This document shows positions 975-9,409 of a DNA stretch of 10,946 nt, one piece after another. The notes under the pieces were generated by a model. That model was not told the DNA's origin. It was given only the letters and a program-made list of their open reading frames with translations, and did no database searches. Within the stretch, counting starts at the first letter, position 1; every line of letters starts with the position of its first letter. The stretch comes from a virus, in the UHGV virus genome UHGV-0116491; one strand, given 5' to 3'. Position numbers and translations under genes: made by a program.

Positions 975-1001
975 GAAAACCCGCCTGAAGGCGGGTTTTT
1001 T
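975..1001. terminator. Bidirectional rho-independent terminator for the converging + and - transcripts
   Basis: Stem CCCGCC (980-985), loop TGAA, stem GGCGGG (990-995), flanked by an A-run upstream and T6 downstream. It sits between the stop of the 783..956 gene and the stop of the minus-strand gene at 1004. Confidence 0.8.
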
Positions 1002-5601: not shown

Positions 5602-5964
5602 TTAATGACCTGCTGCGCGGAGTTTTCCGTCAGGTTCACCGGCAAGAGTCAGTAATTGTCCCTGGTCTTCCTGCAGAATAGTCAGGCGACCACCGCGATT
5701 GACATACATCGGCGTTTCGGTGGTGTCTTCTTCGGAAATTTTCCCGCGGTTAGTCGGGCGAACATATGAGAGTTTGTGTTTTATTTTCACACGGTTCTCA
5801 TCAAACGGTTCGATTTCCAGGTTGAGCGAGACCTTACCTTTGGTTTTCGTGTTCATCACACCGGAAGCGACTTCACTGAGAACTGCGCCGATTTTGGTTT
5901 CAAATACGCCGCCGTCCAGCTCCCCGATAAATGCCTGCACATCAGTACTGCGTTCGCTAGCCAT
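5602..5964 (-). CDS. yfdP: YfdP-like hypothetical protein (120 aa), first gene of the early-left operon
   Basis: ATG at 5964 (MASERSTDVQAFIGELDGG...) with GAGGAG 8 nt upstream. The track's 197-aa version begins at an upstream start with no SD and runs through the large inverted repeat. Confidence 0.7.
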   Translation of the reverse strand: MASERSTDVQAFIGELDGGVFETKIGAVLSEVASGVMNTKTKGKVSLNLEIEPFDENRVKIKHKLSYVRPTNRGKISEEDTTETPMYVNRGGRLTILQEDQGQLLTLAGEPDGKLRAAGH

Positions 5965-6012
5965 TTTGCTGCTCCTCATCATATCGACCCTGCAAGGTCG
6001 GTTGGTTTCTCC

Positions 6013-6101
6013 ACAAAACAGAGAAGAACACCTGCGGTGGCAGCCGCCCGGATGGATTGGGTTATGAGCCCGTCGTCCGGTGATGCTCTTCTCTGTTTTG
6101 T
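6013..6101 (-). repeat. 15-bp perfect inverted repeat enclosing a 59-nt loop, forming a large hairpin just upstream of the yfdP-like RBS
   Basis: ACAAAACAGAGAAGA (6013-6027) and its exact reverse complement TCTTCTCTGTTTTGT (6087-6101). Possible RNase III or translational-control element. Confidence 0.6.
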
Positions 6102-6147
6102 AAAAAGAGCGGTACCAGCCGGAAGCAAGTGTACAAACTGGTACCGC
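6101..6147 (-). terminator. Intrinsic terminator inside the early-left leader (tL1-like)
   Basis: On the minus strand: 10-bp perfect stem (GCGGTACCAG / CTGGTACCGC; plus 6138-6147 and 6109-6118) with a 19-nt loop, followed by UCUUUUUA. Confidence 0.5.
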
Positions 6148-6564
6148 CAACGCAGTGGCTGTTGTGGTGGGGTTGTCACTTAGGCGTATGGTCAACCTGA
6201 CAATCCGGTGTCCTCAACGGGGAAAGAGTAACCCCGCCATACTTACCGCCGCGCCATTTCGCGGATTACCACAACGCTGAGAGCACTTAGCCAGTTACGG
6301 CACCACACTTTGTCGCGGTTCCATAAATGCCCTCATCGTTGCACCCTGGTCTCTTCCCAGGCGTCAAACCGAATCGCCACGCTGGTTAGGCGTCTTATCA
6401 GCATCCTCATTGACTTGCACATTCCGGCTACCTGGTTTGTTTGCCCGAGCAAGGAGTGGATTGTCCCCTTTAACGTCCCCAGACCGCTAACGACGCATGT
6501 GCCATACGCCGTGTTACAACCAAATTTTGTTAGTACCTTGTTTGTAGGTCTGGAGAGAAAGATA

Positions 6565-6615
6565 AAATGAAGTTGCGCATTATGCAAGTATTTTATTGCG
6601 AGATATGCAATTTGG
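6565..6615 (-). promoter_or_regulatory. OL operator pair and putative leftward early promoter (pL)
   Basis: Two 15-mers of the form TTGCG-N6-GCAA (6573-6587 TTGCGCATTATGCAA; 6596-6610 TTGCGAGATATGCAA) spaced 23 bp apart; the same form recurs at OR. TTGCAT and CATAAT-like hexamers lie on the minus strand, but exact -35/-10 spacing is unresolved. Confidence 0.5.
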
Positions 6616-7359: not shown

Positions 7360-7456
7360 GCGTTTATTACATTTCTTTATTGCGCGTTAAGCAAATCAAC
7401 TTGCGCAAAATATTTGCGTGAAATAATATGCTCATCACGCAATATGTGGAGGTTAT
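7360..7456. promoter_or_regulatory. OR region with divergent pRM (leftward) and pR (rightward) and operator-like repeats
   Basis: pR candidate: TTGCGC (7401-7406), 17 bp, TAATAT (7424-7429). pRM candidate on minus: TTGCTT (7394-7389), 17 bp, TGTAAT (7371-7366), ending 6 nt before the cI ATG with no SD. Operator-like TTGCGCGTTAAGCAA (7380-7394) and near-palindrome CGCAAAATATTTGCG (7404-7418). Confidence 0.55.
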
Positions 7457-7717
7457 ATGCAATCACCATTACGGAATGTGCGTAAGGCGCACGGATTTAC
7501 TTTGCAGCATGTTGCTGCGGGCGTTCAGGTCAATCCAGCGACGCTGAGTCGTATTGAAAGACTGGAACAAATTCCATCTATCGATCTTGCAGAACGTCTG
7601 GCCAATTTTTTTAAGGGTGAAATCAGCGAAATGCAGATTCTTTATCCGGCACGTTTTCAATCTAGCCAAAACCAGAATGGGTTTAAACCACAGGAACAGG
7701 AGGTAAGCCGTGGGTAA
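7457..7717 (+). CDS. cro: Cro-like HTH regulator (86 aa)
   Basis: ATG at 7457 with GGAGG 5 nt upstream; HTH region FTLQHVAAGVQVNPATLSRIER; divergent from the repressor gene. Confidence 0.8.
   Translation: MQSPLRNVRKAHGFTLQHVAAGVQVNPATLSRIERLEQIPSIDLAERLANFFKGEISEMQILYPARFQSSQNQNGFKPQEQEVSRG
7469..7669 (-). CDS. This -strand reading frame runs 201 nt (66 codons) without a stop; no product assigned
   Basis: An open frame of 201 nt on the - strand, long enough to be a gene and not just a gap between stop codons; no ribosome-binding site or similarity was checked. Confidence 0.3.
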   Translation of the reverse strand: MARLKTCRIKNLHFADFTLKKIGQTFCKIDRWNLFQSFNTTQRRWIDLNARSNMLQSKSVRLTHIP

Positions 7718-8261
7718 GCATCATTGGAAAGTGGAAAAACAACCCGAGTGGTACGTGAAAGCTGTCAGAAAAACTATCGCGGCATTGCCTAGGGGTTACG
7801 CTGAAGCTGCTGACTGGCTGGATGTAACAGAGAACGCTTTATTCAACCGCCTTCGTGCAGATGGCGATCAGATTTTCCCGCTGGGATGGGCAATGGTTTT
7901 ACAGCGCGCGGCTGGCACTCACTACATTGCGGATGCTGTCGCACAGTCTGCTGGTGGGGTGTTCGTATCGCTTCCTGAAATTGAGGAAGTAGAGAACGCC
8001 GATATAAACCAGCGCCTGCTGGAAGTCATCGAACAGATCGGGAATTACTCAAAGCAGATTCGTTCGGCAATCGAAGATGGGGTCGTGGAGCCACACGAGC
8101 AGACAGCAATTAATGATGAGTTGTATCTGTCAATTTCGAAGCTCCAGGAGCATGCAGCACTGGTCTACAAAATCTTCTGCGCTCCAGAAAAGAGTGACGC
8201 CCGCGAGTGTGCAGCTCCGGGCGTCGTGGCGTTTTGTGTCTGTGGAGAAACTAACGCATGA
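7710..8261 (+). CDS. CII-like phage regulatory protein (YdaT/CP76-like), 183 aa, GTG start
   Basis: GTG at 7710 with GGAGG 6 nt upstream, overlapping the Cro-like stop; position (third gene of the rightward operon) and size match CII/YdaT-type proteins; family assignment from memory. Confidence 0.65.
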   Translation: MGKHHWKVEKQPEWYVKAVRKTIAALPRGYAEAADWLDVTENALFNRLRADGDQIFPLGWAMVLQRAAGTHYIADAVAQSAGGVFVSLPEIEEVENADINQRLLEVIEQIGNYSKQIRSAIEDGVVEPHEQTAINDELYLSISKLQEHAALVYKIFCAPEKSDARECAAPGVVAFCVCGETNA

Positions 8262-8862
8262 ACAGTTTAACGGCAAATAACCGTTTGTCGCAACAGCTGG
8301 TGGTCAGTGTCGCTGAACACCTGTTGTTACGGCATGAATGCAGATTACCAAATCACTTGGCTGTAAGTAACCACAGAGAACTTTACCTGACTGTGGGGGG
8401 CGAGTTGTGCAGGAACTTAACCGCTGGTTTCGTGACGGAAGAGGGCTTTATGTCCATGTTATTCGTTGGGAGCCAGAAACACAGCGCGTTATCTATCTTC
8501 GCAAAGACTACCCGCATGAGTGCTTTAGTCCTTTGTGGAAATTCAGGCGTGATTTTGTTGAGTGTGAAGGACCACCAGCACATTGATTCTGCCATTCCGG
8601 GACGTTACACTGTTCAGGCACCTTATAAAGCGGGTGCCGGGCGTGGAAACCCGGAATTCACCAAAGCGCACAACCGCGCTCTTGCGGTTTTTTTGTGTAA
8701 TGAGCAGCATTACGCCCAAATTATGGTGGGGCGTGCAGGGCCAACTTCGGTTGGGCCGGGTTCTTTGGTGACCGGTATTTCCACCCCTGTACGTCTCACC
8801 ACCAATAAGGTCGTGGAAAGCCTTGGTGGTGAGTTATTAAAAATCACCAAAGAGGCTGCCAT
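8258..8862 (+). CDS. Unresolved ORF that overlaps the CII-like stop (ATGA) and runs in-frame into the Rha gene with no stop; either an N-terminal extension (full ORF 8258..9409, 383 aa) or a frameshifted / dual-coding segment
   Basis: ATG at 8258 with GGAG 10 nt upstream. Codon usage in 8585-8862 is strongly coding-like (all five Arg codons are CGT/CGC; ACC x6, GGT x5). No recognisable domain. Confidence 0.35.
8407..8586 (+). CDS. Alternative -1 frame ORF (59 aa, GTG start) inside the unresolved segment
   Basis: GTG at 8407, 6 nt after a G6 run; product VQELNRWFRDGRGLYVHVIRWEPETQRVIYLRKDYPHECFSPLWKFRRDFVECEGPPAH is protein-like, with 6 of 8 Arg codons CGT/CGC. Just under the ORF-track length threshold. 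Confidence 0.3.
   Translation: MQELNRWFRDGRGLYVHVIRWEPETQRVIYLRKDYPHECFSPLWKFRRDFVECEGPPAH
8672..8694 (+). terminator. Terminator-like hairpin plus T-tract inside the unresolved segment; contains a boxA-like CGCTCTT
   Basis: AACCGC-GCTCTT-GCGGTT followed by T5 (T7 in total); CGCTCTT at 8677-8683. Lies inside a frame that looks coding, so it may be coincidental. Confidence 0.3.
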
Positions 8863-8863
8863 C

Positions 8864-9409
8864 ATGGCTACGATCCCAACCCTCACTCAACCTGAAATTG
8901 CCATCGTTGATGGTCAGGCTGTTACTTCATCCTTGGCTGTTGCCAACTTCTTCTCCAAACGTCATGACGATGTACTGAAAAAGATCCGCACGCTTGAATG
9001 CTCTGCATCATTCACTTCCCGCAATTTTTCGGTGAGTGATTACACCGATTGCACAGGCCGCAAACTACCTTGCTATCAAATAACCCGCGACGGCTTTGCG
9101 TTTCTTGCTATGGGTTTCACGGGTAAACGTGCTGCCCAGTTCAAAGAGGCATACATCAATGCCTTTAACCAGATGGAGAAACAGCTTTCAAATCCCTCTG
9201 TACTGAGCGACGTTGCACATAACGCCAGCGTTCTCTATTCCTACATTTCATCAATTCATCAGGTCTGGCTGCAGCAGCTTTATCCTATGTTGGCAAAAGC
9301 CGAATCTCCGCTGGCTGTTAGCTTGTATGACTATATTAATGATGCTTCGGCGCTGGCCTGCCTCATAAATTTGTCGCTGAATCCTTCAGAGGTAAGGGGG
9401 CGCAAATGA
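8864..9409 (+). CDS. rha: Rha-family phage regulatory protein (181 aa)
   Basis: ATG at 8864 with AGAGG 8 nt upstream; N-terminal region (FFSKRHDDVLKKIRTLECSASFTSRNFSVSDYTDCTGRKLPCYQITRDGFAFLAMGFTGKRAAQFKEAYINAFNQME) matches the Rha domain pattern as I recall it, in its usual N-terminal position. Confidence 0.7.
   Translation: MATIPTLTQPEIAIVDGQAVTSSLAVANFFSKRHDDVLKKIRTLECSASFTSRNFSVSDYTDCTGRKLPCYQITRDGFAFLAMGFTGKRAAQFKEAYINAFNQMEKQLSNPSVLSDVAHNASVLYSYISSIHQVWLQQLYPMLAKAESPLAVSLYDYINDASALACLINLSLNPSEVRGRK

Follow-up and report, generated by a model that had tools for sequence, protein, structure and literature searches.

Terminators between an early promoter and the delayed-early genes are a familiar part of lambdoid phage leaders, and those of the lambda tL1/tR1 type are read through by N-Nus or put-type antitermination. 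Premature termination is also the source of a class of 5'-UTR-derived sRNAs, known from 3'-end mapping in E. coli, in which one transcription unit gives a short terminated regulatory RNA as well as a readthrough mRNA. The immunity RNAs C4 of P1/P7 and CI of P4 are processed from leader transcripts and have tRNA-like features. Efficient intrinsic terminators typically have loops of 3-8 nt.

The closest described RNA is the 193-nt sRNA-17 of E. coli K1 RS218, which lies in an mEp460-like prophage and was mapped there by Northern blot and 5'/3' RACE (Front Microbiol 2020, PMC7719688). It was reported to be absent from Rfam and to be more abundant in stationary phase; its deletion changed approximately 48 transcripts, its promoter region was bound by phosphorylated ArcA, and its expression was reported in a lysogen (PMC7719688). 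The 3' hairpin of the RNA was not described as a terminator in that study, nor was sRNA-17 placed in a pL leader (PMC7719688). The terminator described below is a sequence variant of the terminator of this published prophage sRNA and is not new in itself.

The stretch of DNA analysed here (10,946 nt, hereafter the window) represents the immunity region of a temperate phage of the SfV/mEp460/cdtI-like kind. A cI-type repressor gene with HTH and peptidase S24 domains by Pfam (7359-6667, minus strand) ends before a terminator-like hairpin of its own found by the terminator scan (6645-6628, minus strand). The repressor gene is divergent from two others, one Cro-like (7457-7717) and one CII-like (7710-8261). 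The minus-strand early-left genes begin with a yfdP-like gene of 120 aa (5964-5602, ATG at 5964), which matched no Pfam family and is preceded by the Shine-Dalgarno sequence GAGGAG (5977-5972, minus strand). It is followed by a YfdQ/DUF2303 gene (5536-4712, minus strand) and then by a YfdR-like nucleotidase gene. Approximately 700 nt without a convincing gene separate the cI stop from the yfdP-like ATG. Within this gap lies a putative OL (6573-6610) made up of two TTGCG-N5-YGCAA operator repeats (6573-6587 and 6596-6610), a third copy of which is found in the cI-cro spacer (7380-7394). Similarity to phages of other immunity types begins at about 6531, just downstream of the putative OL. A putative pL promoter, recognised from the sequence on the minus strand (6559-6587), combines a -35 element TTGCAT (6587-6582), a 17-nt spacer and a -10 element TATCTT (6564-6559). 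It is a weak sigma-70 match with a predicted start near 6552, and it is absent from the promoter scan list because only 8 of 12 consensus positions agree. In a lysogen pL should be repressed. From the putative pL to the yfdP-like gene runs a non-coding leader of about 590 nt.

Searching the whole window with cmscan against Rfam 15 (E up to 1) gave no match in the leader (5960-6560). ARAGORN found no tRNA in the window, and of 41 relatives scanned 35 had none in the leader, the exceptions being a tRNA adjoining the upstream module (module A, below) in phiV10-type and P1-type phages. The yfdP frame is open upstream as far as a TTG at 6195 (5602-6195, minus strand), through the terminator and the structured RNA downstream of it. 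Small 'hypothetical proteins' annotated in the leaders of mEp460, phiSTEC1575-Stx2k and Ayreon are inconsistent among records, occur on either strand, lie across the RNA modules and are probably spurious.

The terminator hairpin with its U-tract occupies 6101-6148 on the minus strand, as judged from sequence, folding, conservation and the 3' end found by RACE in a homologue, which corresponds to 6103. Its 5' arm GCGGUACCAG (that is, GCGGTACCAG; 6147-6138), a 19-nt loop TTTGTACACTTGCTTCCGG (6137-6119), the 3' arm CUGGUACCGC (that is, CTGGTACCGC; 6118-6109) and the U-tract UCUUUUUA (that is, TCTTTTTA; 6108-6101) follow one another on that strand. The stem consists of ten perfect pairs, seven of them G-C, and an eleventh can be added as G6148-U6108; the earlier note's description of a 10-bp perfect minus-strand stem followed by a U-tract is exact. 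U occupies six of the eight positions of UCUUUUUA. RNAfold adds two inner G-U pairs within the loop, which if formed leave it at 15 nt. The hairpin alone folds at -20.7 kcal/mol; in a 66-nt context the value is -21.2 kcal/mol (z = -2.1), with equally good folds in 8 of 200 shuffles.

A G+C-rich stem with a directly adjoining U-tract is a hallmark of intrinsic terminators, and both are present; the loop, at 19 nt, falls outside the short range (3-8 nt) of that class. The consensus terminator scan permits loops of 3-8 nt only and for this reason skipped the hairpin. The description of the terminator as strong is unproven: the stem and the U-tract are good, whereas the long loop argues against that label. 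Simulation for the size and composition of the window gives 0.31 expected perfect inverted repeats (at least 10 bp, loop of at most 25 nt) per window and 0.03 once a U-tract is also demanded. The window holds two of the latter kind, the hairpin at 6101-6148 and one at 976-999. The second belongs to a textbook plus-strand terminator at the far left of the window (975-1000), with an 11-bp stem, a 4-nt loop and a U-run; weak sub-threshold Rfam matches there (rnk leader, P9, RNAI) probably reflect the hairpin only.

Relatives of the leader were gathered in three ways, by similarity to phage records, by an exact pattern for the core of the structured RNA downstream (a three-way junction, below) and by a pattern for its 3' arm. 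The last pattern lies outside both the terminator and the core, so that the set it yields avoids circularity. In that set, a hairpin folding at -10 kcal/mol or better, with four or more U behind it, immediately precedes the junction in 115 of 120 distinct relatives, and the 5-7 U adjoining the stem are likewise kept in 115 of 120. The stems themselves differ. Among 33 hairpin-carrying cluster representatives there are 19 different outer stems, for example GCGG-UACCAG, GCGG-CAUC, GCGG-CGCCAG, GCGG-UUAUCC, GUCGGCGUC, UGCCCAUC and CUGGCGG. Counted in register by script, 97% of the outer-stem positions form standard pairs as against 56% with shuffled partners, a paired fraction that is high partly by construction since the hairpins were picked by folding. 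The solid observation is that a stable hairpin and a U-run are nearly always present and that the stem sequence differs; pairing and U-tract are kept despite the changes in the stem, as for an intrinsic terminator. The loops of the relatives are mostly 13-19 nt long or contain a branched insert, and the terminator loop is pyrimidine-rich with a CCC core kept across relatives. This conservation with compensatory stem changes, together with the 3' end in a homologue, upholds the earlier proposal of an intrinsic terminator in the early-left leader.

There are exceptions. In two relatives (L084, L224) the junction comes directly after the promoter region, and in a third (L060) a different hairpin stands in the terminator's place; terminator and junction are therefore separable. 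Minimal relatives (L245 type) have promoter, approximately 30 nt, terminator, junction and gene in this order, which makes the terminator an integral element of the leader and more than the end of an RNA gene that was inserted. No base differs between phage mEp460 and the window from the terminator hairpin to the ATG, the only nearby difference being one base just upstream of the hairpin. In one subfamily (L007, L014, L018, L059, L226, L229, L239 and L270) the terminator loop carries an insert of 25-30 nt with a Shine-Dalgarno-like GGAGGA or GGGGGA and a conserved GAUAAUGUUCU (AUG or GUG). This insert, absent from the window, puts a possible start codon within the 3' half of the terminator.

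A query of 5985-6280 comprises the domain preceding the terminator (module B, below), the terminator, the junction and a last hairpin (P4). Of 5426 complete E. coli genomes, 4707 contain matches to parts of this query, at a median of 2 and up to 9 places per genome, and 817 genomes have 80% or more of it covered. No annotated feature lies under any E. coli match among the matches listed. In CPS-53 of E. coli K-12 the whole leader has been removed by deletion.

Placement of sRNA-17 relied on the supplement of the published study and on mEp460. The supplementary alignment includes 'caccacaacagccactgctttggcggtaccagtttgtacacttgcttccggctggtaccgc', which is the terminator hairpin, and its full-length row begins, in reverse complement, 'aaaagagcggtaccagcc' (PMC7719688). 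On mEp460, the 193 nt that end ...CTGGTACCGCTCTTTT (RNA end ...GGTACCGCTCTTTT) start exactly at GTTGTGGTG, in agreement with the alignment rows, and the RNA 3' end thereby falls at window position 6103, inside the U-tract. Minus-strand 3' ends at about 6101-6105 had been expected by the earlier note, and the in vivo end mapped by RACE in a homologous prophage with an identical hairpin lies within that interval; the RACE used circularised RNA (PMC7719688) and would give the same result for termination as for the trimming of a longer RNA as far as a stable hairpin. The earlier note had missed that a discrete small RNA, expressed in lysogens, ends in this hairpin.

By homology to sRNA-17 through mEp460, the window is predicted to encode a related unit of 173 nt (6103-6275, minus strand), in the order closing helix (GUUGUGGU, 6275-6268, with ACCACAAC, 6168-6161), variant central domain (module B), linker and terminator. 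The two RNAs agree in 8 nt at the 5' end and in about 60 nt at the 3' end, where one base differs. Hairpin and U-tract of the terminator are the same in both, the approximately 22 nt before the hairpin (CACCACAACAGCCACUGC-G/U-UUGG) differ at that one base, and both RNAs begin with the 8 nt GUUGUGGU and have the same genomic position, the cI-yfdP leader of mEp460-like prophages. In contrast, the central 105 nt or so are replaced by another domain, which gives the predicted length of 173 nt instead of 193 nt. The cdtI, Ayreon and Stx2c phages have this central domain too, and such copies have been classed as 'degenerative sRNA-17' (PMC7719688). The published 5' end of sRNA-17 is the first base of the closing helix and the sequence has no convincing promoter directly upstream of 6275, which together suggest that the 5' end arises by processing of a longer transcript. 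An anti-sRNA of the AgvB type was considered on account of CACCACAAC, which is GcvB-target-like, and was rejected: AgvB is 51-60 nt long, and AgvB and AsxR are Rfam families of late-region sRNAs. CACCACAAC is the 3' strand of the helix formed with GUUGUGGU.

The hairpin and U-tract are thus probably an intrinsic terminator in which an sRNA-17-family RNA of the prophage has its 3' end, the end arising, we infer, by termination rather than by processing. Polymerase arriving from upstream would first transcribe two structured RNA modules, and part of the transcripts would be released at the U-tract as an RNA (6275 to about 6103, minus strand, 173 nt) carrying a stable 3' hairpin. Polymerases that read through would go on into the separate three-way junction and then into the early-left genes, with the terminator acting constitutively and letting part of the transcription pass. 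The distances noted earlier, approximately 450 nt from the presumed pL and 140 nt to the first gene, agree with a start near 6552, for a promoter read from sequence, and with 137 nt from the end of the U-tract to the ATG at 5964. The promoter scan finds no promoter-like minus-strand site from the terminator to the yfdP-like ATG, so the downstream genes plausibly depend on readthrough. As with the 5'-UTR-derived sRNAs, one transcription unit would yield both a short regulatory RNA, by termination, and an mRNA, by readthrough; in contrast to them, the leader here is an array of several mobile structured RNA modules, and the 5' end of the sRNA lies within the leader at the base of a helix, suggestive of processing.

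Directly downstream of the release site lies a three-way-junction RNA (6013-6101, minus strand), predicted by RNAalifold from 23 diverse relatives. It is closed by a near-perfect helix P1 of 20-22 bp (6101-6082 with 6032-6013) and contains P2 (6080-6076 with 6052-6048), P3 (6047-6034) and an invariant 21-nt core GACGGGCUCAUAACCCAAUCC (6074-6054). RNAalifold gives 37 pairs, 9 of them with compensatory changes, which occur in all three helices (columns 15-113 of the alignment, for example, are CG in 12 and GC in 11, and compensatory changes are also seen at 18-110, 21-107, 30-58, 32-56, 63-97 and 64-96). Rfam has no match for it. The 15-bp inverted repeat whose 5' arm the U-tract had been said to abut, as the sequence confirms it does, is part of P1. 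A conserved GGAGA (6008-6012, minus strand) can extend P1 by pairing with the U-tract (U-G, U-G, U-A, U-G, U-A), and it is kept also in relatives in which the U-tract is lacking or displaced (L084, L033 type), so that this pairing is not its only role. Between the junction and the gene stands the hairpin P4 (CGACC-UUGCAG-GGUCG; 5985-6000, minus strand), whose UKGCAG loop is kept and whose stem varies in relatives, and beyond it lie the yfdP-like gene's Shine-Dalgarno sequence and ATG. The first gene after the leader varies among relatives, being YfdP-like (in two forms) or RdgC, and the junction accordingly belongs to the operon leader and not to one gene.

The tip of P2, GGGCUCAUAACCC (6059-6071, minus strand), together with the preceding C is identical at 14 of 14 positions to the anticodon stem-loop of the E. 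coli initiator tRNA (metY), including its three G-C pairs. Among the 120 relatives of the 3'-arm set the tip loop is CUCAUAA in 66, CUCAUUC in 31 and UUCAUAA in 7, and a few have no CAU at all (CCCUAA, CUCCUAA, CCCACCA). Mimicry of the initiator tRNA as a strict rule is weakened by these variants; the resemblance is frequent, not strict. There is no cloverleaf as in a tRNA-like gene, only the 14-nt anticodon-arm identity to metY, and any tRNA-mimic function of the tip is a low-probability lead. The 21-nt core is found again in other scaffolds. It immediately precedes a holin gene, after a tR'-like terminator, in three late-operon leaders (L231, L011, L241), in the first of which a Q antiterminator gene (PF03589) is confirmed upstream of the late leader, and it occurs also in a gene 5' UTR of an Acidobacteriaceae MAG (L230). 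Terminator and junction occur together in more than 100 distinct early-left leaders. That the terminator and the abutting junction are one conserved, undescribed phage leader module placed after terminators that need readthrough is a doubtful proposal at this point. If it is true, the junction tip could act on 30S subunits or on translation initiation at the first cistron, or alternatively could be a decoy for nucleases that cut the initiator tRNA (VapC type).

Upstream of the sRNA-17-like unit lies module A (6276-6525, minus strand), a structured non-coding RNA whose stems covary (CCUGG/CCAGG, CCGG/CCGG, CCUCG/CGAGG) and whose indels are not multiples of three. It contains a hairpin ACGGCGUA-UGGCACA-UGCGUCGU (6512-6490) and another with a GAAGAGA loop. 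Module A is approximately 78-80% identical to the trnI-ban spacer of P1/P7 (P1: L004 2501-2685) and to intergenic DNA adjoining tRNA-Arg in phiV10, TL-2011b and phages related to them (phiV10: L005 2501-2745). It is common to epsilon15-like, Klebsiella and Enterobacter phages, usually beside tRNA genes. By cmscan neither module A nor module B matches Rfam, and neither matches the HK022 put RNAs, to which the junction also has no similarity. An antiterminator of the HK022 put type was rejected: the score of module A against putL was equalled by 68 of 500 shuffles and against putR by 291 of 500, whereas in the positive comparison putL against putR was equalled by none of 500.

Like C4 and CI, the RNAs of this leader are small and structured and would be excised from a leader transcript of the phage; in contrast to them, the leader modules have no sequence or Rfam relationship to C4 or CI, and no target sites were identified. 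A genuine C4 antisense RNA (8719-8806, plus strand; Rfam, 83.6 bits) and an isrK RNA (8618-8694, plus strand; Rfam, 67 bits) are present on the other arm of the window. Both lie within a 383-aa ORF (8258-9409) annotated as antirepressor or peptidase in phage records. A Pfam 'Ash' match (residues 117-213, about 8606-8896) overlies isrK and C4, and the Rha domain begins after these two RNAs; the 5' part of this ORF, and perhaps the Ash family match too, may be RNA read as protein. A perfect inverted repeat of 10-11 bp with a 17-19 nt loop (8795-8833), one of only three such perfect repeats in the window, begins in the last 12 nt of the C4 match.

How polymerase would pass the terminator bears on the comparison with lambdoid leaders. 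The terminator stands, as tL1/tR1-type terminators do, between an early promoter and delayed-early genes, and active antitermination of the early-left genes is plausible. The particular form in which the terminator is the target of lambda-N-like, Nus-dependent processive antitermination with nut-like signals in the leader is compatible with an intrinsic terminator ending the sRNA and would add a mechanism for the readthrough, and we regard it as rather unlikely. BoxA GCUCUUUAACAA is known from nut and rrn sites, and in this subfamily a similar string, CGCUCUUUUUACAA, runs across the 3' arm and the U-tract; hairpins with UKGCA loops occur at 6512-6490 and 6000-5985. The mEp phages were collected as Nus-dependent (PMC11893012), so that the phage family here includes a member of such a collection, and mEp460, which has the same leader, would by its name and collection be Nus-dependent. 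However, the boxA-like string is confined to this subfamily and is replaced in relatives (CCGCCCUUUUUAC, CCGUCCUUUUUAC), and a Pfam scan of ten ORFs of the window revealed no N-like, arginine-rich protein. In contrast to the case of the lambdoid leader terminators, neither an N-like protein among these ORFs nor a conserved boxA/boxB was found, there is no significant similarity to HK022 putL/putR, and the terminated product is, from the homologue data, itself a stable sRNA.

The main rival to termination is a processing route, by which P1 would be cut, for example by RNase III, and exonucleases would trim back to a hairpin that serves mainly as a 3'-end stabiliser or binding platform, with sRNA and mRNA both coming from one processed transcript. 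We consider this improbable, somewhat more so than antitermination. P1 is a long, near-perfect helix that includes the U-tract in the predicted fold, the long pyrimidine-rich loop with its conserved CCC core suggests a second function, and RACE by circularisation (PMC7719688) is compatible with either route. Against these points, the 5-7 U after the stem in 115 of 120 relatives are a signature of termination for which processing has no need, and the published 3' end lies inside the U-tract.

A regulated attenuator, with termination switched by an alternative fold of the downstream repeat or of a segment upstream, is very unlikely. The earlier note had taken the abutment of the U-tract and the repeat as typical of a regulated terminator; this does not hold, since the repeat is the closing helix of a separate junction supported by covariation and both its arms are transcribed after the release point, where P1 is unable to compete with the terminator hairpin or to block its formation. 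In many relatives an upstream G/U-rich segment can pair with the U-tract and the 5' arm of P1 (mean z = -0.9, 24 sequences), yet folding of alternative structures finds no such upstream competitor helix in the window, where the segment is unpaired and the duplex amounts to -3.1 kcal/mol (z = +0.5). The segment was consequently rejected as a competitor for the 5' arm, the trend being weak in relatives and absent in the window. No conserved leader peptide spans the terminator, and attenuation by a leader peptide was rejected as neither start codon nor frame is conserved. A chance palindrome without function, for which the modest z in the 66-nt context could be cited, is hardly credible beside the 0.03 expected per window, a position kept with different stems in more than 100 distinct relatives and a 3' end mapped there in a homologue.

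With termination at the U-tract as the preferred reading, the hairpin can be annotated as the site at which an sRNA-17-type RNA of the pL leader terminates, and a published virulence-linked sRNA gains a phage regulatory context. An sRNA cut from, or terminated within, the early-left leader would have its level linked to early-left expression. The larger value lies in the 590-nt leader as a mosaic of mobile structured RNAs, none of them in Rfam, one module of which is common to the P1 ban operon and epsilon15-like phages and another of which, the junction with an initiator-tRNA-like tip, recurs after terminators in early and late leaders. The terminator is ordinary; it is the surrounding unannotated RNA array, above all the terminator-plus-junction module, that is worth following up.
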